A stretch of 64,000 nt of DNA from Candidatus Latescibacterota bacterium (GTDB taxonomy: Bacteria; Krumholzibacteriota; Krumholzibacteriia; WVZY01): contig CP070677.1 of NCBI GenBank assembly GCA_020352495.1, positions 3,678,924 to 3,742,923 of the forward strand, in the 5' to 3' direction. Shown here in pieces: positions 22,209 through 39,849 of this stretch (within the stretch, counting starts at the first letter, position 1; every line of letters begins with the position of its first letter). The notes under the pieces were generated by a model that searched no databases, was not told the origin of the DNA, and saw only the letters and a list, made by a program, of their open reading frames with translations. The translations under genes and the position numbers were made by a program.

Positions 22209-22396
22209 TGCCCGAAGTCGATGACTCCCACGGGTTGGCCGGCCGCTGACGAATTCCGCTTTGCGTTCAATGGAGATCGCGTCCAAAAAATTCCGGCGCC
22301 GTTTGCCCGCCGCAGGTATTCTGCTATATTTGAATCGTAAGGCTCTCGCCGGCCGGAAGGCCGGAGGTTGACACCAATCTGAGCAAAGTGGCGTGT

Positions 22397-22499
22397 TGTC
22401 GGGACTGGGAGTTGGTGTCGACGCGACTTCCGCAGCGCGCGCTTCTTTACCCGCGCGTGCAAGGACCAGGAGCGGAGAGACCAACTCCCAGTCCCGACA
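22397..22499 (+). repeat. structured intergenic element, copy D (candidate ncRNA/hairpin repeat family)
   Basis: perfect 20-bp outer inverted repeat TGTCGGGACTGGGAGTTGGT/ACCAACTCCCAGTCCCGACA enclosing GACTTCCGCAGCGCGCG-loop-CGCGCGTGCAAGGACCAGGAGCGG, homologous to cores of copies A-C. Confidence 0.5.
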
Positions 22500-22518
22500 T
22501 TCACAAACGTGGTATGGC

Positions 22519-22824
22519 ATGAGAACGTTAACCTCCATCTCGACCGTTCTCGCGATCCTAGCCTCGTTGCTTCTCCAAGGGTGCATTCTGGGCGACGACG
22601 AGGGGATTGTGTCGGGCATGGGAACCATAACATTCCTCGATTTCGAGGGAGGATTCTACGGGATTGAGGCCGACAACGGCGACCATTTCGATCCGGTCAA
22701 CCTCGAACCGGAGTTCCAAGTCGACGGTTTGCGTGTGAAGTTCAGGGGTAGGATCATCGAAGGCGCCAGCACCCACATGTGGGGCAGGCTGTTAGAACTG
22801 AAGATGATCAAAAGACTCGAGTAA
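22519..22824 (+). CDS. small lipoprotein (hypothetical)
   Basis: ORF 22393..22824; likely start MRTLTSISTVLAILASLLLQGC (lipobox) 20 nt after element D; about 101 aa. Confidence 0.5.
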   Translation: MRTLTSISTVLAILASLLLQGCILGDDEGIVSGMGTITFLDFEGGFYGIEADNGDHFDPVNLEPEFQVDGLRVKFRGRIIEGASTHMWGRLLELKMIKRLE

Positions 22825-22876
22825 CAGTAGTCGTCTTTGCCGCCTCGTCCTGTCCGGCAAATGGGCACGAGCTTTT

Positions 22877-23401
22877 CTAACGACGAGCAAACTGCTCTTC
22901 CACCAACGATGTCGCTTCGTCCCCGTCAATCGTCCCTCGATCGAGGAGTCTCCGCGCAAAAACAGCAACCGCCTTCTTGACGTCCTCACGCCCAAAAAAT
23001 TTCTCCAGATTCCGGCGCACGCGGTCGAAGCGTTGTTTCTTGTTTTCCGAAACGTGTGGCAGGGCACCAAGCAGAGTGCGCGCCTGCCGAAGTCGCTCGT
23101 TGTAGGCAGGTCCGCGTGGGGCGCCGGGCAGAAAGAACCGCTGCGCCAGGGGGCCGGCCATCAGGATCGCGGCCAGCCGTTCGACGAGACGCGATGATTC
23201 CACCGTCCGGACCCACGCAAAATCGACATTCCGGAGCGGATCGTCCCAGACGTTCTTCCCCACTTCCGGTCCGTTTGGAAATATCGACACGGGCATCAGC
23301 ATCACCCGATGATCCCACGCCGCCAGGGCATGCCCGGCTTCTCGATATGCGGCGGCATGGTGATCTTGGGTTCGGGTTTTTCGCCTAGTGTGGCTCACCA
23401 A
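22877..23401 (-). CDS. hypothetical protein with degenerate FtsH/M41-like motif (REAGH instead of HEAGH)
   Basis: 174 aa; AAYREAGHALAAW resembles M41 zinc-binding AYHEAGHAL but first His is Arg; 47 nt downstream of 23449..26718 on same strand. Confidence 0.45.
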   Translation of the reverse strand: MVSHTRRKTRTQDHHAAAYREAGHALAAWDHRVMLMPVSIFPNGPEVGKNVWDDPLRNVDFAWVRTVESSRLVERLAAILMAGPLAQRFFLPGAPRGPAYNERLRQARTLLGALPHVSENKKQRFDRVRRNLEKFFGREDVKKAVAVFARRLLDRGTIDGDEATSLVEEQFARR

Positions 23402-23448
23402 GGATCTCCCAAGTACTTCAGTTGAGATTGACCAAGGAAGAGTACGGG

Positions 23449-26400
23449 TTACAGATCAAACCCAAACGCGAGTGTCAGATAGTGGCTCCACCCTCTCTCC
23501 TGCCGGATGTCGAGGGGCAGCGCTCCAAATCCGGTGAGCGAGATCTTCACCGGATCGAGCGAATATGCCGCTACCCAATTGACCGCGGTGGGAAAAAGGT
23601 AAAATGAACCCAAGCTCAGACGGAGGTCGACGCCCACCGAGTTCTTGAAATTTCTAGCCGCAAAATCTCTCTGGCCCCACGCAATCGCCGTCTCATAGAA
23701 GATGCCCGCGTACAGATCTCTGAAGTAGAGATTGAGAAATTGTTTGTCGATGTTTCGCCAAACCGGGAACCGGTACGTGAGGCTCCCCAGAGCGCCTTTT
23801 TTGTCTCCAATGCTGTAGTACGTATATCCCCGAATACCATCCCGCCCGCCAAGATACGTCCAGAAAAAGTCATCGACACTACGATCGATAAAACTGCCAA
23901 AGAGCCGCAGTCTCAACGAATGCCGTAGATACGGCAGGCCAATGTACTCCCGCCAGTCGACGGTGAATCTGTGATATGGAACCTCTGAGAGCTTCGCTTT
24001 GAATCCGTACTCGAACTCACCGGTTATAAAAAGTTTGTTCCACGATTTCAGATACTCGAACATGATCTGCCGGCCGCCCCGCGGATTGATATCCGTGTCC
24101 ACCGCGGGGGCGATGCCCCTGTACGTCCATCGAAAGATGCCCTCGTTACCCTCGTAGTACTTCCAACCACCTTTGAACGATCCACGATACTCACCGTATT
24201 TGAATTCGTCACCCTCGAGGTGCACTCTGTACTCACTGGGTTGCCAGTGGGCCGAGATCTCGTGAAGCCGTGTTGGCGAGTAACGCTCCGACAACTCAAA
24301 TTTCAAGCCAAAACTCGCCTGCCAGAGGTCATACTGCGTGTCAAAAACAAACTCGCTTCCCGTCTCCTCATCAAATGTTCGATCGGAGTGGAATTCGCGG
24401 AGTCTGATGAAATCGACAAACAACGCGGGGAAAAAGAAGTCCACGTTTTCGGTAAGAAACTTTGGATAAAAGTCCCGAATCTCGTACGTGAAATACAAGT
24501 CGAACTCCTCGTCAGTTCCATACGACCCACCGGCAAAGAGCGACTGTTTGTCAAGAATCTCGTTGCTCATCATAAACAGACCAAGACGGAATTTGTTGTC
24601 CCAGACCACGATGCGAGGAAACAACTGGAATGTGGTGAAGTTCCATTTGTAGTTCGAACTCGGGAGCTCCCCATCGCCCCCCGGCGAGTCGCTGGGACGT
24701 TGTGCCGTGGACGGGGCTCCGTTGGACACCGAATCCCCAACAAAACGGCTTTCGGCTCCTTCGCCGTTTTCAGCCCGCCCGGAATCGTGCGACAGCCAAC
24801 TCGGCGATACCGCAGTCGACCCGTCTTCGACATTCGAATTGGCCGTCACTGGGTTTTTGAGAAACGCACATTCGTCATACGGCTTCACGTCGCGCGTCTT
24901 GAACGTGATCGAGTCCATCGTCTCGACCGGGCCCGCGTCACCTTCCACAAAATAGACACAATGACCATCACCGCTGTAATGACTGTAAGCGAGCGCCCCA
25001 TCACCGGGTGACTGGTCGGGCATAAACGCGCCGCCGACGACATTTGTGTGTTTTTTGATCGATCCGTCTTCGAGAGCGAGTTCGTAGATATTGAAAATAC
25101 CGGTGCGGTCACATGCAAAGATGATCCCCCGTCCGTCCCGCGTCCACCGCACATCCCGCTCGTCGTTTGGGGTTTGGAGTATGTACCGGAAGTCCGTCCC
25201 GTCGGCCAATATCATGGCAACGTCGCGAGTCCCCTCCCTGAAGATGCCAAAAAGGATCTTTTCGCCATCCGGTGAAAAGTGCGGATTGTAGAACTGTGTT
25301 CCCATCTTTCCCGAGTAGAGTTCCCGCAGGTTCTCACCATATGCATCCATGACGACAATACGATGCGTCCCGTCGTTGTTTCTGACGCCGACGATCTTCT
25401 TTCCGTCGGGTGAAAAATCGGGGTCACCAATCCGCGCACCTTTGGTGAGCCGTTTTTCCTTTTTTGTTTCGAGATCGTAGACAAAGACATCATTCACCGT
25501 GGAACCGTAGTGATCGACCTTGTGTTTGCGTGAATAGAGAAGTTTTTTTCCGTCTGCAGAGAACTGTGGAGGCGAGCTTAAGCCACCTTTTATGCGCTTT
25601 CTGTTTTTCCCAAAGCGATCGATGACATAGAGGCTCGTTACCGCGTAGTCAGTTCCCTTGTTCGAAAGAAACGCTATCTTCCTCCCATCCGGGCTAAACA
25701 CCGGGGCCACGTTCAAGTAACTCTCTTTGGAATCCCCTCCGACGAGGAGGCTTCCCTTCCGGAAACGCTCACGAACATCGGCCGTCTGAGTCTCGAATCG
25801 GCTTTTGAGGTGCGCTTTCCAGTCGTCGTAGAGCTCCTTGCCCTTCTTGCCCGTGACCTTTTTTAGCGCGCCATCCATGTTGAGCCGGTTTGGAGCACGC
25901 AGGGCGCGTGTGATCTCCGCAATAGAGTTGGGTCCGTATGTTGCCACGATGTAATTCGTCAGCCCAAAACCATGGTCGTACACCTGTTCACCCCTCATCG
26001 ACGATTTTCCAAAGAAACCCATTTCGTCGTATGTGAGCATCTGGTCCTCGAGCACAGCGCACCTGAGGATCATATCGCGGTGAGAGTCCCAACAATCGTA
26101 TTTGAGATTTGGCGTCTGATACTGCGAGACACCCTCGGCAAACCACGGCGGATACACGATCCCGGAAAACGGATAGGAAACGATGTGATCGGGATACCCC
26201 TGAAGCACATCGGGGCGTCGTTCTTTCTCGAAGTGGATCAGCTGAAAGTAGATGGCCGGCACCCGCGTTGTCATTTTCATCGCGGCCTGAATGGAGATGA
26301 TGTGAGCGTACTCGTGAGTGACGACGTTTCGAATCCACTCCGTCGTACCTCGGTACCCGAACTCCAGATTCGTCGCCCAAATCTCCACCTTGTTGTCATA

Positions 26401-26694
26401 GAAGTACGCCGCACCGTTGGCGTAGTCGTCGGTGTCCTTAATGATGAAGTGCACCGGTGTGTTGGGCTCGTATCCGTAAAGCTCGGTCAGGGGGCCGTGA
26501 ACCTCTTCGGCGACCTTCGCCACCTGTTGGGCGGTCCACTCGGCACCCTTGTGATAGTGAACCTCGAAGTGTTCGGTTTTGATCGTCTTCCAACTGAGCG
26601 ACACATTGTTGTAGGAAAAGACGCTCCCGGCGGGCCACGCGAGGAGCGCCACAAGGAGCGCAAGAAACAGGTGAGCGGTCTTGATGTTACGCAT
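23449..26694 (-). CDS. secreted peptidase-MA-like (HEXXH) / PD40 (TolB-like) beta-propeller / C-terminal Omp85-like beta-barrel protein
   Basis: ORF to 26718; signal from MRNIKTAHLFLALLVALLAWPAGSVFS; VVTHEYAHII zincin motif; PD40 repeats (FSPDGRKIAFLS, FSADGKKLLYS, FSPDGKKIVGV, FSPDGEKILFG); C-terminal about 400 aa with alternating aromatic pattern and RGY...GD...G...S..YRFP motif ending LAFGFDL. Confidence 0.75.
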   Translation of the reverse strand: MRNIKTAHLFLALLVALLAWPAGSVFSYNNVSLSWKTIKTEHFEVHYHKGAEWTAQQVAKVAEEVHGPLTELYGYEPNTPVHFIIKDTDDYANGAAYFYDNKVEIWATNLEFGYRGTTEWIRNVVTHEYAHIISIQAAMKMTTRVPAIYFQLIHFEKERRPDVLQGYPDHIVSYPFSGIVYPPWFAEGVSQYQTPNLKYDCWDSHRDMILRCAVLEDQMLTYDEMGFFGKSSMRGEQVYDHGFGLTNYIVATYGPNSIAEITRALRAPNRLNMDGALKKVTGKKGKELYDDWKAHLKSRFETQTADVRERFRKGSLLVGGDSKESYLNVAPVFSPDGRKIAFLSNKGTDYAVTSLYVIDRFGKNRKRIKGGLSSPPQFSADGKKLLYSRKHKVDHYGSTVNDVFVYDLETKKEKRLTKGARIGDPDFSPDGKKIVGVRNNDGTHRIVVMDAYGENLRELYSGKMGTQFYNPHFSPDGEKILFGIFREGTRDVAMILADGTDFRYILQTPNDERDVRWTRDGRGIIFACDRTGIFNIYELALEDGSIKKHTNVVGGAFMPDQSPGDGALAYSHYSGDGHCVYFVEGDAGPVETMDSITFKTRDVKPYDECAFLKNPVTANSNVEDGSTAVSPSWLSHDSGRAENGEGAESRFVGDSVSNGAPSTAQRPSDSPGGDGELPSSNYKWNFTTFQLFPRIVVWDNKFRLGLFMMSNEILDKQSLFAGGSYGTDEEFDLYFTYEIRDFYPKFLTENVDFFFPALFVDFIRLREFHSDRTFDEETGSEFVFDTQYDLWQASFGLKFELSERYSPTRLHEISAHWQPSEYRVHLEGDEFKYGEYRGSFKGGWKYYEGNEGIFRWTYRGIAPAVDTDINPRGGRQIMFEYLKSWNKLFITGEFEYGFKAKLSEVPYHRFTVDWREYIGLPYLRHSLRLRLFGSFIDRSVDDFFWTYLGGRDGIRGYTYYSIGDKKGALGSLTYRFPVWRNIDKQFLNLYFRDLYAGIFYETAIAWGQRDFAARNFKNSVGVDLRLSLGSFYLFPTAVNWVAAYSLDPVKISLTGFGALPLDIRQERGWSHYLTLAFGFDL

Positions 26695-26924
26695 CTGGAT
26701 CACTGAGGGGTAGACCAATAGCTGTGAAAGGCAATCGGGTCAAGATCCTTCTTTTACAGGGGTCGGGAGAATCAGGCTGGTCAATTCCTCTCCAAATCCA
26801 CTTACTTAATGATACGTCGCAACTTATGAAAAGTCAACAGGTATGCGACTTGGTCGTTTGACAAGGGCGTCGGGACCCGAGATCTAACACAGGGCACGAC
26901 GGGTATTCCGAATCGTCGCCGACA

Positions 26925-28259
26925 TCACCGGGGTTTTTCATCGACCGACGCGGCCTCACGCTCGCGGTCAGGCTCGGCGGGCTCTTCGTCGACCGACGGG
27001 GTCCCACGCTCACCGCTGGACCCGGCGAGCTGTTTGTCGGCCGGTTTTTCGTCGACCGACGCGGCCTCACGCTCGCGACTGGGTTCGGCGGGCAGTCTGG
27101 GATCAACCTCTATCTGTTGGGGCGACTCAAGCTCTTTGGAGGCGGCCCCCATTTCCTCGAAACGCCGAACCGCCGGAAGCAGTCGACCTTCCAACGAGCG
27201 CACGGCAGCATTGTATTGGTCGACGGATTTCTTCAAAGCCTGTCCGAGGTTTGTCAGGTAGTCAACAAATGTCGTGACACGTTTGTGAAGCTCTTTCCCT
27301 TCCAGGGCGATTCGCTGTGCGTTCTCCGTGACCTGGTGTTGTTGCCAGCCGTAGGCGACGGTACGAAGAAGCGCCAAAAGGTTGACCGGCGAGCTAATCA
27401 AAACACGGTTACTGATCGCGTACTCGAGAAGCTCTGCGTCGACCTCGAACGCCGCCCCAAGAGACGATTCGTTTGGGACAAACATCACGACGAAATCAGG
27501 CGCCCTGTCAAACTGATCCCAATAGGACTTGAGTCCCAGTTCACGCACCCGTGCACGCACTGCCTTCGCATGCTGTATCAGCTTGGCACTTCGCACGTCA
27601 CTGTTGGCACTCTCCATCGCATCGAGGTACGAGTCCAGCGGCACCTTGGAATCCAGCGGCAGAATACCGCCGTTTGGCAGGTGAACGACCATGTCAGGCC
27701 GGCCCGATTCCGCACCAGCCTGTTCGTCGAAGTCCACGTGACCGGACATCCCGGACATTTCGACGACACGACGAAGCTGGAGCTCACCCCACCGCCCTTT
27801 TACCGTGGGGGATCTGAGAGCTTGTGCAAGGCTCGCCGTTGTGTTCTGTAGCGCGCCATGCATCTCACCCAACTGTTTTAGTTGTTGACTCAGCGATCCG
27901 TACGCCTTCTCGCGTTTGGACTCCAATTCCCTGACGTGGCTCTCGAGGTTGGAGAGGTTTTTGTTCAGAGGACTGAGCAGACCATCGATCTGGGTCTTGG
28001 CCCTCTCGGTGATCTGCGAGGAGTTGTCCTTTAGGGCCCTGCCGGCAAGAGCTTCAAAGGCGTCTCGCATGTGTGTTTCGGCTTTCTCCGTCCAACGTAT
28101 CCTTTCCGCATCCGTTTCTCGTTCTTTTCCGAGCTCCGCGATCCGAATCCTCAAGTTCTCCGCCTCCCTCTCGGAGGCGTGTCTTTTGAACAAAAACACG
28201 ATGAGACCCACCACGACACCGGCGAAAAACGTGGCGAGTGGCAGTGACAATTCAGACAT
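26925..28259 (-). CDS. rmuC: DNA recombination protein RmuC with C-terminal 15-aa tandem repeat tail
   Basis: N-terminal TM helix then long coiled-coil, conserved RmuC C-domain (RPDMVVHLPNGGILPLDSKVPLDSYL...DFVVMFVPNES); tail EPSREREAASVDEKP x3. Confidence 0.8.
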   Translation of the reverse strand: MSELSLPLATFFAGVVVGLIVFLFKRHASEREAENLRIRIAELGKERETDAERIRWTEKAETHMRDAFEALAGRALKDNSSQITERAKTQIDGLLSPLNKNLSNLESHVRELESKREKAYGSLSQQLKQLGEMHGALQNTTASLAQALRSPTVKGRWGELQLRRVVEMSGMSGHVDFDEQAGAESGRPDMVVHLPNGGILPLDSKVPLDSYLDAMESANSDVRSAKLIQHAKAVRARVRELGLKSYWDQFDRAPDFVVMFVPNESSLGAAFEVDAELLEYAISNRVLISSPVNLLALLRTVAYGWQQHQVTENAQRIALEGKELHKRVTTFVDYLTNLGQALKKSVDQYNAAVRSLEGRLLPAVRRFEEMGAASKELESPQQIEVDPRLPAEPSREREAASVDEKPADKQLAGSSGERGTPSVDEEPAEPDREREAASVDEKPR

Positions 28260-28383
28260 GAACTCAACCTCTGTTTACAAAACCCTCGCAGGACGTTTGT
28301 GGGATGCGGATCAGCAGGGAACCGGACCGGCGCGTTTCGTGCCCTGGAGGAAGTGAGTTGTGCATAGGCTCAAACTGGGCGCG

Positions 28384-28866
28384 TTATTGGGACACCTTGC
28401 CAAAGGCATGTAGCCATTCCCTGGCTTTGTCTTCATCATCGAATTCGTCAACTTGGGACCCTCTGTTGCGCGCAACCGTTATGATAAACTGCACGTCTTT
28501 TCGGACCCGAGGATCCCTTGGCAACACAACGGCCATAATTATCGGCACCGTGGCCCCGTCTGTACCAAATGTCGATCCAAAATCGTAGGCCTCAAAGGTG
28601 GCCATCGAACTTGTAAGGTCCACCAGATCGACCAGGATTTTTATGGTCTCCTTTTCCTCGCATAGCCGAAGGGTATCCCGGCGTGCGTCTACGTGCTCCG
28701 CCACCTCAACCCGCCCAGAGAGTCGTACCGATACGATCTCTTCATCATCGATGACCCGAATCTCGTACGGCACCGCTTTGCTCCTTACACCCACCCTGAG
28801 AAAGATAGGCGCATGTTCGAGTATGGCGTGCCGTTTGGGATAAGTCAATTTGCTAATCGAACGCAA
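28384..28866 (-). CDS. hypothetical protein (possibly STAS-like)
   Basis: 160-aa ORF with good coding periodicity, no clear motif. Confidence 0.45.
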   Translation of the reverse strand: MRSISKLTYPKRHAILEHAPIFLRVGVRSKAVPYEIRVIDDEEIVSVRLSGRVEVAEHVDARRDTLRLCEEKETIKILVDLVDLTSSMATFEAYDFGSTFGTDGATVPIIMAVVLPRDPRVRKDVQFIITVARNRGSQVDEFDDEDKAREWLHAFGKVSQ

Positions 28867-29010
28867 CGGATGGGGACGTTAAACAAGGGGCTTCCCGAAA
28901 GGTCCCGTCGCGTGACCGACCTGGCCGGCAAATCGATCTCAACTTGCCTGACCCGAAACGCTTGGCGAGTCGCTCCTCCCGGATCCACGATGGTTGCCCG
29001 GCAAGGAATC

Positions 29011-29958: not shown

Positions 29959-30422
29959 TTTGTGTGAAACCTGACGCTCCGGTTTGGGGTACAACCCAAT
30001 AGACGGAGGCAAGAAAAAAGATAATATACATATAATATATAGTTCAAGTTTATTTTTTATATTGTACATATGATTGAATGAGGACTAGATTAAGGGTGGA
30101 ACCGGTGCCGCGTCGAGCACATGCGGCAGCCGCCTCGAAAACCTCAGGCATCACCCAATTTTTTGAGAGCACACGGCACCGGTTTTCAAAATAACGACGA
30201 CGACACTGCAGCGAGGAGAACACAGGATAGGGGAATCGCGAAAACCACTCAACATTACGGAGTCCCCACCGGACGAAGGTAGCATGTCTCCGCCCCCGAA
30301 GATGTGCTACCTTTTGTCATTTATAAGAATCCGTGGATGTTTGCAGATGGAAATCGGTTAGGGTTGGTTCCGAAGAGTCGGCTCCCACCCGCGAGAGGCA
30401 AACCCCACATCACACCCCCGGC

Positions 30423-31941: not shown

Positions 31942-33021
31942 GTGATGAAGCGGGTACCGACATTTCTTCTCATCATTCTGGTCATCGCATCGATGTCCTG
32001 GGTCGCCGGGTGCAGTAATGATGATCCGACATCGGCGAACGACGAGTTGTACACCCGGGAACAGGTGCCCGACCTGGACGATGAGTACGGTGGATTCAAT
32101 CTGGGCGACGAGGCCCCGGCCTTCGACGATCCGGAACTGGCGGCGGAGTTTGGCGACGACGACGCGTTCGACGATCCCTTTGAGAATGATCCCGCGGTCC
32201 TCAAACATGAGCGTGACCGCAACGGGAACCTGAGGGGTCGGATTTTTCTGATGATCACCTGGGGTAACCTTCACCGGGATGAGACGATCACACATGTGAC
32301 GGACTGGACGGGATCGCTCTCGGTGGATCCCGGTGTCATTCTCTTGAGGCGGACCATCCGGTTCGAACCCCATGACCGGATCCTACCCAGAACACAACGA
32401 AATCTCCTCGAGTGGGAGTCGAAGACCATGCCGTCATTCGACGGGATTCTGGTGCGTATCGTCGCGTGTCCGGAGATAACCAACGCGGACGCGTACACAA
32501 GGATCGACTCGGCAAACACGGTGATCACGTTCAAAACCGAGCCGTTTAGCGTGTCATTCACCCTCGATCGACTTCCCGGTCTGCACCGAGTCGTCACGCT
32601 CGAAGACGGCAACGCGGTGGCGTTCACCGCGGTGCACGTTCCGCCGCAAGCTTGCCCGCGCGGGTTTCTTCGCGGTGTGTGGCGTCACTACCCCGAACGG
32701 CCCGGTGGCGAGTTCTTTGGGAAATGGGTGAGCGAGAGCGGGTTGCACATGGGATTCCTCAAGGGCTTCTACGGTGTCAACAAAGAGGGCGAAAAAGTCT
32801 TTTTCGGAAAATGGATCAGCCGATCAGGCCGGTTCCAGGGGCTGCTTCGCGGCAGGTATGGCAGTTATGAGGAGGATGGAGCGGGTTGGTTTGCCGGGGT
32901 GTGGCTCGGCCGGGATCGCCGTGTCCACGGTGAGCTCAAAGGCGAATGGAGACGGAACGACGAGTGCCACGGAGGATTCTTCCGCGGTGTGTGGGCTAAG
33001 AACTGCGACCGAATCCTCTGA
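31942..33021 (+). CDS. hypothetical lipoprotein with acidic linker and triplicated Gly/aromatic repeat
   Basis: signal+lipobox LVIASMSWVAGCSND; acidic stretch DDPELAAEFGDDDAFDDPFEND; repeats FFGKWVSESGLHMGFLKGFYG / FFGKWISRSGRFQGLLRGRYG / WFAGVWLGRDRRVHGELKGEW. Confidence 0.6.
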   Translation: MMKRVPTFLLIILVIASMSWVAGCSNDDPTSANDELYTREQVPDLDDEYGGFNLGDEAPAFDDPELAAEFGDDDAFDDPFENDPAVLKHERDRNGNLRGRIFLMITWGNLHRDETITHVTDWTGSLSVDPGVILLRRTIRFEPHDRILPRTQRNLLEWESKTMPSFDGILVRIVACPEITNADAYTRIDSANTVITFKTEPFSVSFTLDRLPGLHRVVTLEDGNAVAFTAVHVPPQACPRGFLRGVWRHYPERPGGEFFGKWVSESGLHMGFLKGFYGVNKEGEKVFFGKWISRSGRFQGLLRGRYGSYEEDGAGWFAGVWLGRDRRVHGELKGEWRRNDECHGGFFRGVWAKNCDRIL

Positions 33022-33189
33022 TATCCCCTTTGGGACATATCAACGGATGCACTCGTAAGAGGACCCCTTCGGACCACATTCCGAAGGGGTTCTCGCTTGT
33101 ATCGAATCCACAACGCGTTGGCCCGAACCTCCCCCGGGTGGACTAACCTTGATCCGTCTGACTTCGAAACGACATGACGCATGTGGTAA

Positions 33190-33307
33190 GGGGATCGTGG
33201 GGGTGCGCCGGCGAGTTCCGCAGCGCGCCACCAGACGTAGATGAAGTTCATAGCCTGCTCAGTCGGCGCGCGAGGACTGTCTGAGCCGCCGTACCCCCGC
33301 GATCCCC
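33190..33307 (+). repeat. structured intergenic element, copy A
   Basis: outer stem GGGGATCGTGGGGGT/ACCCCCGCGATCCCC; core GCGCCGGCGAGTTCCGCAGCGCGCC ...35 nt... CAGTCGGCGCGCGAGGACTGTCTGAGCCGCCGT; convergent intergenic region. Confidence 0.5.
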
Positions 33308-33368
33308 GCGCCGACACACGACCCCTTGCTACGATCTTCATGTGGCTTCGAGGTCCGACGGATCGGGG

Positions 33369-34220
33369 TTAATCCACCGTGTATTCCCGTCCTTTGGGGA
33401 AAACCTTTTGGATTTCCTCGCACATCCATTCGTGAAAAAGACCGTTCGAGGCAACGATGTGACCGTTGCGAAGCAAATCGTTTTCACCAAAAAAGTCCGT
33501 CACCCGACCACCGGCCTCCTCGATCAAAACGATTCCCGCCGCCATATCCCATGGGCTCAGCGTCAGCTCCCAAAAGGCTTCGGCGCGCCCCGCCGCCACA
33601 TACGCCAGATCGAGGGTGGCGGAGCCCGCCCGCCGGATTCCCCGCGCGTTGTTGAAGAAGAATTTGAACGTCTTGAGATAGTCATCGAGGTACTTCCGCG
33701 AACGAAATGGAAAACCGGTCAAAAACAGAGTCTTGCTTTTGTCCGATATCCCGCTGACCTCGATTCGCTCGTCGTTTAGAAACGCCCCCTCACCCCGTAT
33801 CGCGTGGAAAAGCTCGTCACGCATCGGATCGAATGTGACCCCGAGAACGATCCCTCTACCGTTTGGCTCTTCGAGACCGAGGCTGGCGGCAAAGACGGGA
33901 AAGGCGTGTATGTAGTTGGGTGTCCCGTCCAGCGGGTCGATGTACCAACGTCTGGCCCGCTTGCGGTCGATCCCCCCGTTGATCTCGGGTCTCAAATTCT
34001 CTTCGGCAATGATGAAGTCATTTGGAAAGCTCTCACGAAGGATCGAGACAATGGCATCCTGGGACTCGAGATCGACGGTGGTGACGAGGTCATTTAGCCG
34101 TTTCTCCGTCACGTCGCTTGGGCGAAGGGTCGCGTAGGATTTCCGGATGATCCTGCCTGCCTCACGTGCCGCCTCTTTTGCCTTCTCGAGTTCTTTCTGA
34201 TACCGTCTCATTCGATTCAA
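33369..34220 (-). CDS. inositol monophosphatase family protein (SuhB/IMPase-like)
   Basis: IMPase motifs WYIDPLDGTPNYIHAFPVFAASLGL, WDMAAGIVLIEEAGG. Confidence 0.85.
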   Translation of the reverse strand: MNRMRRYQKELEKAKEAAREAGRIIRKSYATLRPSDVTEKRLNDLVTTVDLESQDAIVSILRESFPNDFIIAEENLRPEINGGIDRKRARRWYIDPLDGTPNYIHAFPVFAASLGLEEPNGRGIVLGVTFDPMRDELFHAIRGEGAFLNDERIEVSGISDKSKTLFLTGFPFRSRKYLDDYLKTFKFFFNNARGIRRAGSATLDLAYVAAGRAEAFWELTLSPWDMAAGIVLIEEAGGRVTDFFGENDLLRNGHIVASNGLFHEWMCEEIQKVFPKGREYTVD

Positions 34221-34269
34221 CCTTTCGTGTATGATTGGATGCCTTTGATTATAAAAACGGTCCCCTTTG

Positions 34270-35160
34270 TCATTTGTACTTCTCGACCAGCATGCTCAAG
34301 AACGCTTTCGCCGGTGGCGACAGTGTCTCCGCGCTTTTGTACACAAGACCCAACATTCGGCTAAAACGGATCTTCCCCGTCGGGATGGCTTTTAGCGAAC
34401 CTCGGCGGATTTCGTTCGAGACGACCTCGATCGGGAGGATACTCGCACCGAGCCCGGCTTCGGTGAGCCTCTTGATCGCTTCCGGGCTCGACGTTTCCAT
34501 TGTCACTTTCAAACCGAGCCCGTTGTCGATGAAGACCTTTTCGATCAGCCGACGGGTCGTGGACTTGGCAGGATACGTGATAAGACCCGTTTCGGCAACC
34601 CTTCGGAGGAGATTCCTTCGGGATCTCGACCCGACGAGCTCATGACCGGGGGGTGCTACGAGAACCATCTTGTCCTCGAATATGGGTACGACCTCATACG
34701 CCTCACCGGGGAGCGGTAGCGTAACAATCGCCAGCTCGATCGCGCCCGTTTCGAGCGCGGCGAGAAGGCTGTCCGAATCGGCCACGAGGACCTGGATATC
34801 GATACCCGGATGTCTGCGGCGGAAGGCTTTGAACACGTCCGGTAGAACATAGACGCTCGCCGCGTCGATGTTCCCCATTTTCAAGAGCCCGCTCTCGAGC
34901 CCCTTTAGACCCTGTATCCTGTGCGTCACCGCATCCACCTTTCTCACGATCTCTTCGGCTTCTGTGGCCAGTATGCTCCCTGCCTGTGTGGGCTCGATTC
35001 GTTTCCCCCGCCGGACATAGAGCTTCTCGCCGACCTCGTCTTCGAGCTTTTTTAGCTGGATGCTTACCGCCGGTTGGGTAACAAAGTGATCCCTGGCTGC
35101 TGCCCTCAAGCTGCCGTGTCGGATGGCGGCTAGAAAATATCGTAACTGACGGATCTCCAT
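34270..35160 (-). CDS. LysR-family transcriptional regulator
   Basis: MEIRQLRYFLAAIRHGSLRAAARDHFVTQPAVSIQLKKLE HTH + substrate-binding domain. Confidence 0.85.
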   Translation of the reverse strand: MEIRQLRYFLAAIRHGSLRAAARDHFVTQPAVSIQLKKLEDEVGEKLYVRRGKRIEPTQAGSILATEAEEIVRKVDAVTHRIQGLKGLESGLLKMGNIDAASVYVLPDVFKAFRRRHPGIDIQVLVADSDSLLAALETGAIELAIVTLPLPGEAYEVVPIFEDKMVLVAPPGHELVGSRSRRNLLRRVAETGLITYPAKSTTRRLIEKVFIDNGLGLKVTMETSSPEAIKRLTEAGLGASILPIEVVSNEIRRGSLKAIPTGKIRFSRMLGLVYKSAETLSPPAKAFLSMLVEKYK

Positions 35161-35348
35161 GGTACGGCAAACCCATTAGCAGGAGTTATCGACAACATAA
35201 ATATAATAAATTTTGCTTATCATACGATCAGTGCTACGTTTTGTCAAGATCGGTGGCCGAAAAATCCGACGCCGGGGATCCCCCCGCCAGTAAGAGTGGT
35301 ACGGAATTCGTCGAGTGAATCGGCAAACCCTCAGGGGGTGCAGCGGTA

Positions 35349-35783
35349 ATGAAACGAATATCACTTGTCCTGGTGTTTGTTTTGGTGTTGTTTGCCTTCC
35401 GCCCCTCTTTTGCAGACTCATATGCGGTCAGCTATTCCCCGTGGGTGTACGTGTACGCCGGGGCTTTGATCGTCAACAGCGGGACTGCTCTTGGCAACGG
35501 GATCTCGGTGGCGACCGGCAATGCCGATCGACGTAACGGACAGTTTGGATTCGTGATTGGTGCGGCGTCCACCGTTTTAGCCGGGGTGATGTATGGCGTG
35601 GATCACGAGAGCGAATATTCAGAGGAGGCGGCGCTGATGCTTGGGGGCACTGGGTTGGTCGCGGCCGTGGCGGGCGCGCTTGCCATAAGAACAGCAAACA
35701 GACAAGAGACGGCTTCCCGATTTTCACCGACGGTGTGGCCCCGGAGGCGCGGGGTATCGGTTGGATTGACGATTCAATTTTGA
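35349..35783 (+). CDS. small secreted/membrane hypothetical protein
   Basis: signal MKRISLVLVFVLVLFAFRPSFA; Gly/Ala-rich hydrophobic segments; ends in Phe. Confidence 0.45.
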   Translation: MKRISLVLVFVLVLFAFRPSFADSYAVSYSPWVYVYAGALIVNSGTALGNGISVATGNADRRNGQFGFVIGAASTVLAGVMYGVDHESEYSEEAALMLGGTGLVAAVAGALAIRTANRQETASRFSPTVWPRRRGVSVGLTIQF

Positions 35784-35942
35784 AAAGTGGTGCACGCGTC
35801 GTAGCCAACTGTCTTTTGTCCTGCAAGACATACGTCACAGATTCCAGTGAGATCCGGGCGATGCAACAGAAACGTGTTGCGCCGGTCTTCCCTCAAAAAG
35901 TCCAAGACCGCAAAATGGCGAAAACCGTGAAGGAGTTGTTAG

Positions 35943-37259
35943 ATGGCAAAACCGATCGTTGATATCAAGGAACCCAAGGGGAAACTCGGTGTGCTGCTTC
36001 CCGGGATGGGGGCGGTGGCGACGACTTTTGTCGCAGGCGTGGAATCGATCCGCCGCGATCTCGCCAAGCCCTTTGGTTCGCTGACTCAAATGGGTACGAT
36101 CCGCCTCGGTAAGCGAACCGACAATCGTTCACCATTGATCAAGGACTTCGTCCCCCTCGCCGATCTTGCGGATCTCGAGTTCGGCGGGTGGGACATCTAC
36201 GAGGACAACTGTTATGACGCGGCGGTAAACGCTGGCGTGCTCCGCAAAGAGAACCTCGATCCAATCAAAGATTTCCTGGGAACGATTCGTCCGATGAGCG
36301 CCGTCTTTGACACGCGTTATGTAAAAAAGCTCGACGGCCCCAACAAAAAGAAGGGCTCGAATTGGTACGAGCTCGCCGAACAGGTCAAGTCCGACATGGA
36401 AAGCTTCAAGAGAGACAATGACATCGACAGGTTGGTGATGATCTGGTGTGGCAGCACCGAGGTGTACACCACGCCAAAGCCGGTGCACGAAACGATCAAG
36501 GCCTTCGAAGAGGGATTGAAGAAAAACGATCCTTCGATCGCACCGAGCATGGTCTACGCGTACGCGGCGATTTCGTCGGGGATTCCATATGCGAACGGCG
36601 CACCCAACCTCACGGCGGATATTCCCGCTCTTGTCGAGCTCGCCCGCGAGATGCACGTGCCGATTTGTGGGAAGGATTTCAAAACCGGTCAGACCCTGAT
36701 GAAGACGATTATCTCCCCCGGCTTGAAGGCGCGGCTTCTCGGTCTCAACGGATGGTTTTCGACAAACATCCTCGGCAACCGCGACGGAGAAGTCCTGGAT
36801 GACCCGGAGTCGTTCAAGACCAAAGAGATGAGCAAGCTTTCCGTGCTCGATACGATCCTTCAGCCACAGCTCTATCCGGACCTTTACGGGGATTTTTATC
36901 ACAAGGTTCGGATCAATTATTATCCGCCCCGCGGTGACAACAAGGAGGGTTGGGACAACATCGATATCTTCGGGTGGTTGGGATACCCCATGCAGATCAA
37001 GATCGACTTCCTCTGCCGGGACAGCATTCTCGCTGCGCCGATCGTACTGGATTTGGCGTTGTTCCTCGACTTCGCGAAGCGCGCGGATCTATCGGGGATC
37101 CAGGAGTGGCTGTCGTTTTACTTCAAAAGCCCACAATGCGCGCCCGAGCTCTACCCGGAGCACGATCTGTTCATCCAGCTCATGAAGCTCAAAAATTATC
37201 TCCGTCACATCATGGGTGAAGAGCTGATCACACACCTCGGGTACGAGTACTACGAGTAG
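35943..37259 (+). CDS. myo-inositol-1-phosphate synthase family protein
   Basis: 438 aa; overall similarity to bacterial/archaeal MIPS (GVLLPGMGAVATTFVAG..., ...NGAPN...); adjacent to IMPase gene. Confidence 0.65.
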   Translation: MAKPIVDIKEPKGKLGVLLPGMGAVATTFVAGVESIRRDLAKPFGSLTQMGTIRLGKRTDNRSPLIKDFVPLADLADLEFGGWDIYEDNCYDAAVNAGVLRKENLDPIKDFLGTIRPMSAVFDTRYVKKLDGPNKKKGSNWYELAEQVKSDMESFKRDNDIDRLVMIWCGSTEVYTTPKPVHETIKAFEEGLKKNDPSIAPSMVYAYAAISSGIPYANGAPNLTADIPALVELAREMHVPICGKDFKTGQTLMKTIISPGLKARLLGLNGWFSTNILGNRDGEVLDDPESFKTKEMSKLSVLDTILQPQLYPDLYGDFYHKVRINYYPPRGDNKEGWDNIDIFGWLGYPMQIKIDFLCRDSILAAPIVLDLALFLDFAKRADLSGIQEWLSFYFKSPQCAPELYPEHDLFIQLMKLKNYLRHIMGEELITHLGYEYYE

Positions 37260-37411
37260 GTTGTCGGTTACGGAGAACTGCCAGAGCAGAGGCCAGGCGG
37301 CGGGTCCATCACGGGTCCGCCGCTTGTGTATTGATTGCGATCGATTGGCAGCCGTCGATCGTCCCAGACTCGATGCGTGGGGGTTGCGAGGTCGATAGTG
37401 TGTGTAGAGCG

Positions 37412-37536
37412 CAGGTGTAGTGGGGGTGCGCCGGCGAGTTCCGCAGCGCGCCGATGCCGCGAATGTTGTGCGAATCCTCGAGACGTTCAGTCGGCGCGCG
37501 AGGACTGTATGAGCCGCCGTACCCCCACTACGCCTG
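37412..37536 (+). repeat. structured intergenic element, copy B
   Basis: outer stem CAGGTGTAGTGGGGGT/ACCCCCACTACGCCTG; same conserved cores as copy A with one substitution (CTGTATGAG); different central loop. Confidence 0.5.
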
Positions 37537-37582
37537 AGCCACCAGTGTCACTTCCTCCCCCGGTTCGACGCATCAAGGTTGG

Positions 37583-38452
37583 CTAAGGCAGGTCGATCAC
37601 ACCCACGGCGTTTCGTGCTCTTTCTCCGATGTCCTCGCCCGCGTCAATGCTCCCCAATACGCGGCGGTGTACACGGATTGTTCCGATCTCCCAATCGCCG
37701 TTCGTGTGTTTGTGTCCGTTGATACAGTGGGTCACTTTCGAGTTGGCCCGAAGTGTATTCCCCAGAGTCTCGCTTCCCGTATAGGCATCGAGATAATACG
37801 GTGGGTCGGATCTCGGAAACGTCTCGACAAACGGGAGCGTATGGATCACCGCCACGATGCGATCGACCTTGTCCTCGATCCCCTCGAGATCAGTCTTGAG
37901 GCAGTCGCAAAGCTCGGCACAGAGGTCCTGGTCCCGCATCCGTTTTTTGTCCGGTGTCGTCCGCGTCGCGCGAGGCGGGGGCCAGAATGTCATCTCCTTG
38001 TCCCACCAGATCTCGTCTTCGTACTGTCCCCGCCAGTAGTCGTCTGCCGTGAGGCCGAGCCGCGGGTCGGCAAACGAGTAGTCGTACCAGCCGAGAGACC
38101 CCACAAACCCCGTATCACCGATTATCACGGGTTCCTGACCGAGGTCGTGAAACCCGTATTCGCGACATGCCTCGGGAATGTGTTTCTCATATTTCGTCCG
38201 GCTGTCCAATGACGTACCGTTACGACGCTCGATCCAAACGTCGTGATTGCCAGGGACAAAGAGCTTGGCAACAGCGAGCTCGGAGAAAAGCGCCAGCGTT
38301 TTCTCGAGGTCACCGATCGTGTTGCCAACATCTCCCGCCAGTACGATCACCTCCGGTTCGAGACCACCCATGGCGGCTGCCATCGCTTTCGCCGCCTCTC
38401 GATTCCGTGGCGATGTGTCGATGTGGATGTCCGATGTGTGCGCGATTCTCAT
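37583..38452 (-). CDS. metallophosphoesterase (calcineurin-like)
   Basis: MRIAHTSDIHID, VLAGDVGN, GNHD motifs. Confidence 0.8.
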   Translation of the reverse strand: MRIAHTSDIHIDTSPRNREAAKAMAAAMGGLEPEVIVLAGDVGNTIGDLEKTLALFSELAVAKLFVPGNHDVWIERRNGTSLDSRTKYEKHIPEACREYGFHDLGQEPVIIGDTGFVGSLGWYDYSFADPRLGLTADDYWRGQYEDEIWWDKEMTFWPPPRATRTTPDKKRMRDQDLCAELCDCLKTDLEGIEDKVDRIVAVIHTLPFVETFPRSDPPYYLDAYTGSETLGNTLRANSKVTHCINGHKHTNGDWEIGTIRVHRRVLGSIDAGEDIGERARNAVGVIDLP

Positions 38453-38779
38453 TGATGTCGCTCCCCCCTTGTCCCGATCCTCTCATACTCCCGGTTATGC
38501 AACGTGTGTGTGATCCACGTTGGCGCCACTTCCCTTACTGGCCCACGGCCCTCACCCGAGTCCCTCGCGCCTCACGGCGGATTTCACTCACTGCTCGGGA
38601 CCGTCTCGGGCCGGCCAGGACCTATCTGCGACTACGATTTATACCCGGCCCTGTACCGACTTGTCAAACAACCGTTGGTGGGCCATGGTGAATTGCGCTT
38701 GCTCCAACGTGCCCCCGTTATTACCATTCAACTGCGTTATCCACAACTAGAATTATCGAACCGGAGGAGGTATTCGATT

Positions 38780-39622
38780 ATGAACGCGCTCAAGACGACG
38801 TTTCTCATGGCGTTGATGACCGTGCTTTTGGTGATCATCGGTCAACTGATCGGTGGTCGAGGCGGCGCGGTGATCGCCCTTGTTGTCGCCGCAGTGATGA
38901 ACTTTGTCGCCTACTGGTCGAGTGACAAAATCGCGCTCGCCAGATACCGGGCTCAGGAGGTCACCCGCGAACAGGCACCTCGCCTTTATTCGATCGTCGA
39001 ACGCCTCGTTGCAAACGCCGGATTACCGATGCCCCGTGTATACATTATCCCCTCGCAAACACCCAACGCATTCGCAACGGGGCGCGATCCCCAACATGCC
39101 GCCGTCGCGATCACAGAGGGCGCGCTCAGTCTTCTCGACGAGAATGAGGTCGCCGGCGTGATCGGGCACGAACTCGCCCACATCAAGAATCGCGACATAC
39201 TGATCTCTTCGATAGCGGCCACACTTGCCGGTGCCATCACGATGCTCGCCATGTGGGCGCGCTTCGCCGCGATTTTTGGCGGGGGCCAGGGTGGCGAGCG
39301 GAGGGGCGGTGGTCTCGAGCTTTTGGTCATGGCGATCGTTGCACCCATCGCCGCAATGCTCATCCAGATGGGGATATCGCGTTCCCGCGAGTACATGGCC
39401 GACGCCGGTGGGGCAAAATTCGCCAACGACCCGCGAGGACTTGCCAACGCGCTGCTGAAGCTCGATGACTATGCGAAACGCCGTCCGATGAATGCATCGC
39501 CCACCACGGCACACATGTTCATCGTCAACCCGCTTCGAGGTGGCGGAATCGCGGGTTTGTTCAGCACGCACCCGCCGACGGAAGAACGGGTGAGGCGTCT
39601 TCGCGAGGCCAGGCTGGGATAA
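38780..39622 (+). CDS. htpX: protease HtpX (M48 family membrane zinc metalloprotease)
   Basis: start MNALK preceded by GGAGGAGG RBS; two N-terminal TM helices; [10 protein letters not shown]; C-terminal [14 protein letters not shown]. Confidence 0.85.
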
Positions 39623-39728
39623 TCGAACGGAGTATGTGGCGCGGGGACGGTGTGGGCACGCCGCGTCGTGTGAGGATGGTGAGGATGTGATGCGCGGCGG
39701 GGGATGGTGTGAACGTAACGCGCGGCGG

Positions 39729-39849
39729 GGGATGGTGAGGGTACGCCGGCGAGTTCCGCAGCGCGCCGATGCTCCGATTGCTGCCGGAATTCTCAAAACG
39801 CTCGGTCGACGCGCGAGGACTGTCTGAGCCGCCGTGCCCTCACCATCCC
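39729..39849 (+). repeat. structured intergenic element, copy C (plus adjacent direct repeats)
   Basis: outer stem GGGATGGTGAGGGTAC/GTGCCCTCACCATCCC; cores as A/B with CGGCGCG->CGACGCG; preceded by 2-3 direct repeats GCGCGGCGGGGGATGGTG (39690-39745). Confidence 0.5.

Follow-up and report, generated by a model that had tools for sequence, protein, structure and literature searches.

Location and extent of the four hairpins

Four long hairpins are found on the + strand of the window, by which is meant the whole 64 kb stretch of DNA that was analyzed, at positions 22397–22499 (copy 1), 33190–33307 (copy 2), 37412–37536 (copy 3) and 39729–39849 (copy 4). These positions agree with a preliminary description of the same DNA, as do the placement of three copies in convergent gene gaps and of copy 1 just ahead of a start codon, its hairpin ending 19 nt upstream of the initiating ATG in a lipoprotein-like ORF (MRTLTSISTVLAILASLLLQGC...). 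That description labelled the arms A to D out of coordinate order, with the copy at 22397 as "D". Each copy folds as one long hairpin with a z-score of −6 to −10 relative to dinucleotide shuffles, and all four fold better on the + strand than on the − strand. The motif TTCCGCAGCGCGC-N20-50-AGGAC-N3-5-GAGC has four matches in the window versus none expected. The covariance model R1, a type of check that had been proposed for these elements, recovered exactly the four copies from the 64 kb with scores of 64, 99, 92 and 96 bits, respectively; the next-best matches scored 19 bits or less and were either the reverse strands of the four copies or plain hairpins.

Copy 1 belongs to a short-loop class and has an outer stem of 20 bp, a loop of 10 nt and the core GCGAC-TTCC-GCA-GCGCGCGC / GCGCGTGC-AA-GGA-CCAG-GAGC. 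A weaker imperfect palindrome surrounds it to about 22366–22536 and runs into the beginning of the lipoprotein ORF. Neither terminal inverted repeats (TIRs) nor a target site duplication (TSD) were recognized for this copy.

The elements had been described as ending with the hairpins, which is too short for copies 2 and 3. The copy 2 hairpin is the central module of a 222-bp palindromic, MITE-like element on the + strand (33147–33368) with a left TIR CCTTGATCCGTCTGAC (33147–33162) and a right TIR GTCCGACGGATCGGGG (33353–33368). The region 33135–33380 folds as a single hairpin (−140 kcal/mol, z −8.7). The element is flanked by the TSD-like tetramers CTAA (33143–33146) and TTAA (33369–33372), an imperfect pair identical at three of four positions. 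The right tetramer contains the stop codon of an inositol monophosphatase gene (33369–34220, − strand). Orthologues without the element conserve the same C-terminus (..EYTVD*). Copy 3 is likewise the centre of a probable full unit of about 210 bp on the + strand (37369–37578), with a decayed left end CTCGATGCGT (37369–37378), a right end ACGCATCAAGG (37568–37578) and no recognizable TSD. This unit stops 4 nt short of the stop codon of a metallophosphoesterase gene (37583–38452, − strand).

The core of copy 4 is perfect and its TIRs are not recognizable. Partial direct repeats of its left arm were read directly at 39670–39728 on the + strand, comprising two occurrences of GCGCGGCGGGGGATGGTG and one sequence resembling GGATGGTGAGG. 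Similar partial tandem copies are present in loci L079 and L105.

Conserved core and strand-specific fold

The core is an asymmetric sequence of about 50 nt and is near-invariant across at least five phylum-level lineages; the conservation first noted among the four copies holds across phyla. From outside to inside, it is composed of a C-G pair, a tandem G.A, a 3–6-nt bulge, UCC/GGA, G(C)A over RA, and a GCGCGC stem. Among copies 2–4, identity is 24/24 and 25–26/27 in the core and 58–75% in the loop and arms. These copies have 60–75% of their arm positions in common and the inner 11 nt or so are almost identical. The preliminary description held that the outer arms differ completely and yet stay complementary. 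The complementarity is indeed maintained through compensatory change; however, only copy 1 is really different in sequence.

Sequence drift is about as fast in the arms as in the loop, yet pairing within the arms is kept. Compensatory change was observed in 14 of 14 outer pairs, and 94.7% of cells are paired as compared to 72% in shuffles and 35–46% in slid controls, which upholds the proposal that the fold is under selection. When the top strand is defined by the core, arm mismatches are G.T in 84 cases versus A.C in 25, and G.T exceeds A.C in 11 of 11 lineage groups, with the proviso that many of the counts derive from related copies rather than from independent events. The tolerance of G.T but not A.C on the top strand indicates that this single strand folds under selection. 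Helix P2 covaries (GGC/GCC, CGC/GCG, GUGC/GCAC), and helices P3 and P4 are invariant and show no covariation. The core has a YGAR context on both strands, and in DNA such a context favors tandem sheared G.A pairs.

No Rfam family explains the elements. A search over the window gave no matches at the gathering threshold, riboswitches and all known self-cleaving ribozyme classes included, and at E ≤ 10 it returned generic miRNA-hairpin models alone, with at most 21 bits against cut-offs of 74–168.

Terminal repeats and target sites

Long-form members are 195–250 bp in length, end in 14–16-bp inverted repeats beginning 5'-CCTYGATYC.., and carry the hairpin at their centre. In an alignment of Eisenbacteria copies, the homology boundary falls at TAACCTCGATTCTTCAAAG ... 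CTTGCAAGATCGAGGTTA. The TIR is present at both ends of window copy 2 and of long-form copies from Eisenbacteria and Latescibacterota CS4-C107; a copy in a Gemmatimonadetes MAG has it at the one end that was readable. Of about 14 evaluable units, 8 have the same 4-mer on both flanks, with the 4-mer varying from copy to copy (TTAG three times; CTAA, TCAA, TTAA, CTAG and CCGG once each), and three more units match at three of the four positions. The preliminary description had set the family apart from MITEs. The shared TIRs and 4-bp TSDs contradict this, as does the absence of copies from orthologous gaps in relatives described below. For genome scans, this serves as a caution that a palindromic mobile element can give rise to perfect stem "covariation" around a conserved loop.

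The left inverted repeat of ISEcp1 (CCTAGATTCTAC), verified as adjoining an annotated IS1380-family transposase, is identical to the Eisenbacteria TIR at 10 of 12 positions. Elements of the piggyBac superfamily have TIRs beginning CCCTT or CCCTC and duplicate TTAA or the variants TTAG, CTAA and TCAA, and IS1380 transposases served as the prokaryotic outgroup in a study of piggyBac (PMC10813416). Judged from sequence, the CCTYGATYC TIRs and varying 4-bp TSDs are hallmarks of an IS1380/piggyBac-type MITE. We infer that the long form would be inserted by a cut-and-paste DDE transposase of this kind, encoded elsewhere in the genome and supplied in trans, at YTAR-type targets (TTAA, TTAG, CTAA, CTAG, TCAA) with duplication of 4 bp. 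No transposase or autonomous element with these ends was identified among the 48 ORFs of the window with Pfam, and a tblastn search of 1.65 Mb of collected loci with the ISEcp1 transposase gave no match.

The YTAR tetramers are seven-fold depleted in this genome. There are 148 in the 64 kb, at a density of 4.6/kb in intergenic DNA versus 1.8/kb in coding DNA, and 11 coincide at least in part with stop codons. Since the sites are depleted overall and enriched between genes and at stop codons, copies would land at gene ends; copy 2 lies precisely on a TAA stop. In GC-rich genomes, insertion at TTAA-like sites would thus explain the accumulation of copies at stop codons and within convergent gaps.

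Not all members can be explained in this way. Neither TIR nor TSD is present in copies 1 and 4 or in at least 12 of the bare hairpins from CS4-C107, and TIR-dependent transposition therefore cannot account for all copies. Moreover, DDE cut-and-paste acts on double-stranded DNA, which leaves the strand-specific G.T tolerance and the asymmetry of the core unexplained. Such a core and strand-specific fold are not expected for a simple MITE.

Distribution and mobility

Many copies of the core are present per genome in Latescibacterota, Eisenbacteria, Krumholzibacteriota, Gemmatimonadetes and further MAGs. Of 108 genome matches, about 62 were recognized as true members, as were about 37 more of 120 metagenome matches. 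While the metagenome set was anchored on the 5' core alone with the 3' half unforced, the 3' halves of its members nonetheless keep GCGAGGA..GAGC. The covariance model matched 68 sequences in 61 sources, with up to three copies per 8 kb.

At the syntenic loci of the closest relatives (L109–L114), whose inositol-3-phosphate synthase is 83–86% identical, no copy is present at three of three orthologous gaps. In a more distant Latescibacterota MAG, copies are present at different positions. The four hairpins probably belong to a family of palindromic, non-autonomous mobile repeats, MITE- or REP-like in character, that is built around a conserved central module. It is a new repeat family and not a set of gene-linked regulatory RNAs. 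A widespread family, with a putative link to IS1380/piggyBac-type insertion at TTAA-like sites, is thereby added to candidate phyla known almost exclusively from MAGs, namely Latescibacterota, Eisenbacteria and Krumholzibacteriota.

The module is not confined to the long form. It is also found bare, nested in another copy, in mosaics or clusters with other palindromes (L093, L048) and in other palindromic carriers, from which it follows that the hairpin module is the unit that persists. The core is retained where TIRs are lost, as in copy 4. It has at least three kinds of flanking context and always occupies the centre of a larger palindrome. In locus L038 (3735–3995), one copy lies inverted within the apical stem of another. 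Plain hairpins occur in the equivalent gaps of the relatives. The inner arms and core might be considered a module that inserts preferentially into the apical loops of existing palindromes (terminators, other MITEs or further copies of itself, for example), with the distal outer stems derived from the carrier and paired without compensatory evolution. The nested copy, the central position of the core in palindromes of differing kinds and the plain hairpins of the relatives are all consistent with such targeting. Arm homology between copies, however, extends well past the core, and the subfamilies of the window, CS4-C107 and the Ga03159xx contigs diverge gradually. Furthermore, no empty carrier was found, L085 (1–140) being a diverged full member, and the sole nested case might be nothing more than ordinary insertion. 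Loop targeting is thus very unlikely. The insertion sequences that do target palindromes (IS1397 and ISKpn1 in BIME loops, IS110-family members in REPs) resemble the repeat family in the one nested apical copy and in the central core, but they are autonomous with transposase genes, whereas the present unit is non-coding and its targeting putative.

Gene context

An intrinsic terminator consists of a GC-rich hairpin followed by a T/U tract at the 3' end of a gene. The four hairpins have no T-tract following on either strand, and were ruled out as intrinsic terminators. The terminator scan reported nothing at the elements but did detect the terminator of the inositol-3-phosphate synthase gene at 37294–37326 (+ strand), ahead of copy 3 and outside the element. 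Ahead of copy 2, the upstream gene (31942–33021) has its own hairpin terminator at 33058–33094 (+ strand), also outside the element. Such canonical terminators adjoin the elements and are present at the orthologous sites of relatives as well.

The orientation of 60 copies relative to flanking genes, as called by a crude ORF caller, was convergent in 20 cases, tandem-sense in 13, tandem-antisense in 15 and divergent in 12. The sign of GC skew also showed no bias with respect to element orientation (28 vs 36), and no recurrent protein is encoded next to the copies. With their stability and with convergent gaps as the largest class, the hairpins could be imagined as bidirectional terminators or insulators kept by the host. 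It is highly improbable that they are, given the missing T-tracts, the terminators already in place, the 12 copies in divergent gaps and the fact that termination needs no conserved asymmetric core. The terminator, 3'-UTR and 5'-UTR roles suggested in the preliminary description do not fit, as the hairpins lack T-tracts, the upstream genes are terminated first and the copies are randomly oriented.

A structured RNA family, the view originally put forward, would make each copy a functional RNA, either a kink-turn-like protein-binding hairpin or a new ribozyme, located in 3' or 5' UTRs or expressed as a small RNA, with mobility as a mere vehicle. The invariance of the core across lineages and its survival in copies lacking TIRs, the G.U-type wobbles on one strand only and the covariation of P2 would suit such a family, as would a sequence layout that fits a kink-turn (C helix GGAC/GUCC, bulge, G.A/A.G, NC helix GCC/GGC). 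Against these stand the random orientation to neighboring genes and the position of copies beyond terminators. No promoter-like site is common to the copies, and bare copies of 95 nt are too short for an internal promoter. The three empty orthologous gaps, the invariant P3 and P4 helices and the lack of any Rfam match argue in the same direction. The bulge is 3–6 nt, and the short-loop class is without the −1b/−1n pair of a canonical kink-turn. A structured RNA family is therefore quite unlikely.

Integron attC sites carry R''/R' core sites at their ends and lie in a cassette array beside an integrase. The ends of the elements do not match R''/R' (RYYYAAC / GTTRRRY), the window encodes no integrase, and the genes between copies are housekeeping genes that are syntenic in relatives without the elements.

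Comparison with known systems

The repeat family shares with IS1380/piggyBac MITEs a small, non-coding, multi-copy unit that is in its entirety an inverted repeat, presence or absence at orthologous sites, TIRs that start CC(T/C) and a 4-bp TTAA-type TSD. It differs in that the centre and not the ends is most conserved, in that this centre occurs without TIRs and in other carriers, in the constraint of its fold on one strand, and in its presence in several candidate phyla.

REPs are imperfect palindromes of 20–40 nt with a conserved 5' tetranucleotide, and a REPIN consists of two inverted REPs. The RAYT enzyme (Y1/HUH) is encoded by a single-copy gene in the same genome and is usually flanked by REPs. 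Like REPs, REPINs and BIMEs, the present elements are high-copy intergenic palindromes that form long hairpins with compensatory arm evolution, cluster with other palindromes, and persist as copies that appear immobile. The bare hairpin could be the true mobile unit, moved as a top-strand ssDNA hairpin by a trans-acting HUH/Y1 enzyme that recognizes the asymmetric core, and the units with TIRs would be MITEs that carry it by chance. This would account for the strand-specific G.T tolerance in every lineage, the core that outlasts decaying TIRs, the many bare copies without a TSD, the BIME-like mosaics, the multiple flanking contexts and the YGAR context on both core strands. On the other hand, the ORFs of the 64-kb window, itself part of a 4.3-Mb contig, gave no Y1_Tnp/RAYT match, and no Y1/HUH gene recurs beside copies. 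The bare copies have no conserved 5' tetranucleotide, such as a GTAG-type motif, or fixed target, and the orientation bias with GC skew seen in IS200/IS605-type elements is absent. At 95–250 nt, the element is far longer than a REP, or than a REPIN of two 25-nt REPs around a variable spacer. Its conserved part is the 50-nt asymmetric centre between variable arms and not the termini, and the long form has TSDs. An origin of this kind is unlikely.

Within the mobile repeat family, the core is proposed to be a recognition site that is read as a folded single strand of RNA or ssDNA, and would serve the propagation or retention of the element and not the regulation of adjacent host genes. A kink-turn consists of a C helix, a 3-nt bulge, tandem trans sugar-Hoogsteen G.A pairs and an NC helix. 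As a sequence pattern alone, the core presents the same order of helix, bulge, tandem G.A/A.G and helix with "GA" read 5' to 3' on both strands. For the long-loop class the pattern is GGAC-[UGUCU]-GA-GCC over GGC-GA-G(U)UCC, and a C-G pair flanks the bulge. Tandem sheared G.A pairs would give the core its kink-turn-like character. It differs in a bulge of 3–6 nt where a kink-turn has 3, in the absence of the flanking pair from the short-loop class, and in a second G(C)A/RA loop 3 bp away, and the fold is equally possible as ssDNA. It is conceivable, though doubtful, that the core is a new functional single-stranded motif in which tandem sheared G.A pairs surround 3-bp G-C helices and a GCGCGC stem closes the structure. 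Such a motif could act as a kink-turn-like RNA that binds protein, as a new catalytic RNA or as a hairpin recognized in ssDNA, and would have been brought to at least five phylum-level lineages by differing palindromic mobile carriers and kept by selection once these decay. A centre that is conserved across phyla, read as a single strand and outlives the transposon ends could mark an undescribed protein-nucleic acid recognition system.

Correia (CREE) and ERIC/IRU elements are also imperfect palindromes of 100–250 bp near genes, with TIRs and short TSDs, and form long hairpins when co-transcribed. Their sequences are unrelated and they are confined to a genus or family, whereas the present core spans phylum-level lineages and has conserved asymmetric internal loops.

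Four hairpins in the window

The four elements at 22397-22499, 33190-33307, 37412-37536 and 39729-39849 of the forward strand (copies 1 to 4) belong to a new repeat family that is palindromic, mobile and non-autonomous. In its long form the family behaves as a MITE of the IS1380/piggyBac type; the central hairpin behaves as a module that persists, and its core is strand-specific and deeply conserved. The positions, which a preliminary description had read from the sequence, were confirmed. Folding returned each copy as a single long hairpin (z = -6 to -10) and favoured the + strand over the - strand. A gapped core pattern was matched four times in the window with no match expected, and a covariance model run over the 64 kb scored the four copies at 64-99 bits; leaving aside plain hairpins and the reverse strands of the copies themselves, no other match in the 64 kb exceeded 19 bits. 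No Rfam family was identified, as a search of the window at the gathering thresholds and a permissive search with one copy returned generic hairpin models only.

Among copies 2-4, the 5' core is identical at 24/24 positions and the 3' core at 25-26/27, while the loop is 58-70% identical. The arms of the outer stem, which had been described as differing completely, are 60-75% identical in these copies with their pairing kept. The structure first noticed is real and non-trivial; its boundary and class were wrong. The real units extend past the hairpins, and the letters A-D assigned to the copies did not follow coordinate order.

Directly upstream of copy 4, three partial direct repeats of its left arm are found at 39670-39728. 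Similar half-copies follow the element at 19-135 of the collected locus L079 and precede that at 1284-1375 of L105, which suggests slippage or abortive insertion at the hairpins.

Distribution and architecture of the family

A core scan of one genome per species yielded at least 108 stretches, with about 62 true members among the matches listed; the others had matched by chance within coding DNA of high GC content. Members were recognised by their motif context, a classifier based on MFE being unreliable in GC-rich DNA. Members occur in MAGs of Latescibacterota, Eisenbacteria, Krumholzibacteriota and Gemmatimonadetes, in MAGs labelled Myxococcales and Gammaproteobacteria, and in unclassified MAGs. 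Copy numbers per genome are high: Eisenbacteria 1.985, for instance, has at least 11 loci and the Latescibacterota MAG CS4-C107 at least 17. When metagenomes were scanned with only the 5' core as anchor, about 37 additional members were obtained, the unforced 3' halves of which keep GCGAGGA(C)-N2-6-GAGC.

The loop is 35-40 nt long in a long-loop class (window copies 2-4), about 13 nt in a short-loop class (window copy 1 and most CS4-C107 copies) and 4-8 nt in a mini-loop class. From the outside inward, the hairpin is composed of a variable outer stem, a P2 stem (GGC/GCC) whose outer positions covary, a tandem G.A pair accompanied by a bulge of 3-6 nt in the 3' strand, UCC/GGA followed by G(C)A over RA, and a GCGCGC stem that closes the variable loop.

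The exact core patterns used for collection do not cover the whole family, since the locus L085 (1-140, - strand) has the shared terminal inverted repeat (TIR; TTAGCCTTGATCTTTCATAAA) around a diverged centre (GCGGCAGCGCGC ... GCGAGCACTGTCGCAG). A reading of L085 as an empty carrier was rejected; it is a full, diverged member. The mid-stems of the Ga03159xx contigs were considered as hypervariable de novo sequence and are instead those of gradually diverging subfamilies. Four metagenome contigs (L119, L187, L195 and L212) share a 5'-core-like string, CCAAGGCGAATTCCGCAGCGCGCAGCGCG, in one conserved context that lacks the 3' core. Its flanks are identical in L187 and L212, with ..CCCATGACC.. just downstream; L195 has ..CTCATGAGC.. 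and L119 is different. The string probably represents a conserved leader or the start of a coding region, with no relation to the family.

Absence from orthologous loci

In the closest relatives, with inositol-3-phosphate synthases 83-86% identical, the genes around copies 2-4 are arranged in the same order (peptidase M19, hypothetical protein, inositol monophosphatase, LysR, inositol-3-phosphate synthase, metallophosphoesterase, M48 peptidase, TPR protein). The covariance model, run with filters off, identified no copies in these syntenic loci. Intrinsic terminators of the ordinary kind, or long hairpins unrelated to the family, occupy the orthologous gaps, and in a more distant Latescibacterota genome copies lie elsewhere within the same neighbourhood. 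The elements are mobile and untied to genes.

The relatives' long hairpins occupy the same convergent gaps, span 100-190 nt and have perfect outer stems of up to 30 bp, without the core or the CCTYGAT ends. Examples are L112 11318-11513 and L113 7134-7346 (orthologous to the window gap 37260-37582), L111 15876-16060 and L007 4960-5065. The relatives' genomes seem to carry several palindromic repeat families that are unrelated to one another.

Transposon ends and target-site duplications

When the Eisenbacteria copies were aligned with their flanks, homology continued well past the hairpin and ended at 5'-TAACCTCGATTCTTCAAAG ... CTTGCAAGATCGAGGTTA-3', a unit of about 217 bp. The same ends (TAACCTTGATCCGTC...) frame 195-bp units in CS4-C107 and, at 33147-33368, window copy 2. 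Copy 3 has kept its right end while the left has decayed, and a Gemmatimonadetes copy shows one such end, the collected sequence stopping before the other. In eight of about 14 evaluable units, the tetramers directly outside the ends are identical on both sides and vary between copies: TTAG in L010, L020 and L041, CTAA in L018, TCAA in L100, TTAA in L022, CTAG in L085 and CCGG in L097. Three more units have flanking tetramers that agree at 3/4 positions. The non-palindromic tetramers (TTAG, CTAA, TCAA) have the same orientation on both sides and are not reverse complements; therefore, they are direct repeats, that is, target-site duplications (TSDs) outside the inverted repeat. The earlier view that the elements are not a MITE is contradicted by the TIRs shared among long-form copies, by the TSD tetramers and by the absence of copies from orthologous gaps.

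Beyond the TSD-like tetramers of copy 2 (33137-33146 versus 33369-33378), GGTGGA on the left is the reverse complement of TCCACC on the right. Native coding sequence (..V D stop), conserved in orthologues, makes up the right flank, and GGTGGA is not present on the other side of the relatives' empty sites. The match could have arisen by chance (about 1 in 4,000), by insertion at a target that was itself palindromic, or by copying of the flank in inverted form.

Probable affinity to IS1380 and piggyBac

The left inverted repeat of ISEcp1, a member of the IS1380 family, begins CCTAGATTCTACGT: the 36-mer is present in 3,651 plasmids and, in pIP843, lies 150 nt upstream of the annotated IS1380-like ISEcp1 transposase. 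It is identical to the Eisenbacteria end at 10/12 positions. In a survey of animal piggyBac elements, insertion occurs at TTAA and the variants TTAG, CTAA and TCAA, the TIRs begin CCCTT/CCCTC, and prokaryotic IS1380 transposases form the outgroup (PMC10813416). From end and target sequences we infer, since the transposase itself was not found, that the long form is best read as an IS1380/piggyBac-type MITE. The ISEcp1 transposase had no tblastn match in the 1.65 Mb of collected loci, a 233-bp unit had no BLAST match in plasmids, and the window encodes no transposase, HUH enzyme or reverse transcriptase. No split cores 0.8-4 kb apart, as expected of an autonomous parent, were found. A gene between two inverted copies in L076 was considered as a transposase and rejected; it encodes an alkaline-phosphatase-like enzyme.

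Gene context

TTAA-type target tetramers (YTAR) are rare in the window (148 in 64 kb), 2.5 times as dense in intergenic as in coding DNA, and overlap stop codons in 11 cases. The inositol monophosphatase gene has copy 2 on its TAA stop codon, with a C-terminus that is the same as in element-free orthologues, and the end of copy 3 is 4 nt away from the stop codon of the gene that follows. Because the targets are rare, enriched between genes and overlapping stops, copies at gene ends do not require a regulatory role.

The positions of the copies had suggested a terminator or UTR function, which is not supported. No T-tract follows any of the four hairpins, and copies 2 and 3 are each preceded by a terminator hairpin that belongs to the gene upstream. 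Orientation is random: no bias was found relative to gene direction or to local GC skew (sign split 28 to 36). Gap classes among 68 scanned copies, rough counts from our own ORF caller, were 20 convergent, 13 tandem-sense, 15 tandem-antisense and 12 divergent. No recurrent neighbour proteins beyond common paralogues were found around about 83 copies, and the window genes have ordinary chromosomal functions.

A sigma-70-like match (TTGCCC-16-TATATT with an upstream TG) lies at 22303-22330, about 70 nt before copy 1, in a scan that gave 9 matches versus 8.1 expected by chance. If this promoter is real, the 5' leader of the lipoprotein mRNA would include copy 1.

The hairpin as a module

Bare copies, varied contexts, uneven conservation, covariation and strand asymmetry are unexplained by a plain MITE. 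The hairpin is bare, without these ends, in copies 1 and 4 of the window and in at least 12 copies of CS4-C107, and no conserved target or TSD was found beside such copies. In one set of soil contigs the hairpin lies within a different 230-nt palindromic unit, and in L093 (5500-5840, - strand) it is flanked on both sides by direct copies of another palindrome, 77 nt long (GCGCGGGTCCTGTCATCGATCACCCCGCG...CGCGGGGGCCCCATCGATGCCACCCGCGC), in a BIME-like mosaic. REP-like mobilisation of the hairpin as single-stranded DNA is considered unlikely.

A search for split cores uncovered a nested pair at L038 3735-3995, in which an inner copy, inverted, occupies the apical stem of an outer copy that has GUGCACC/GGUGCGC instead of the GCGCGC stem. 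The whole folds at -129 kcal/mol with DNA parameters (z -15). That the module inserts into hairpin loops, as this pair might be read, seems improbable.

Across 68 copies, compensatory change was found in 14/14 outer pairs, and 94.7% of cells were paired versus 72% when shuffled and 35-46% when slid. Arm mismatches on the core-defined top strand comprised 84 G.T and 25 A.C, with G.T exceeding A.C in 11/11 lineage groups. Since symmetric mutation of double-stranded DNA yields no such asymmetry, one strand must fold under selection. Because the copies are oriented at random relative to host transcription and replication, the simplest view is that the folded strand is an intermediate in, or a product of, the life of the element itself; alternatively, it could be RNA from only some copies. 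A non-coding RNA family riding on mobile carriers appears unlikely. The REP-like, RNA and loop-insertion readings partly overlap with that of a mobile repeat carrying a conserved hairpin.

On both strands the core has the YGAR context, in which tandem G.A pairs tend to take the sheared form, in RNA and DNA alike. At the sequence level, a kink-turn-like arrangement would fit the core.

Other features of the window

Plain GC-rich hairpins are located at 21411-21465 and 39896-39930. The latter (AACGCCCCCCGG..CGGGGGGCG) is also conserved in the relatives' loci L111 and L112 and probably terminates transcription in both directions between the genes for the M48 peptidase and the TPR protein. On the - strand, 9427-12498 and 15620-21046 encode two very large secreted proteins with type IX secretion C-terminal sorting domains (Por_Secre_tail), consistent with an organism of the FCB group.
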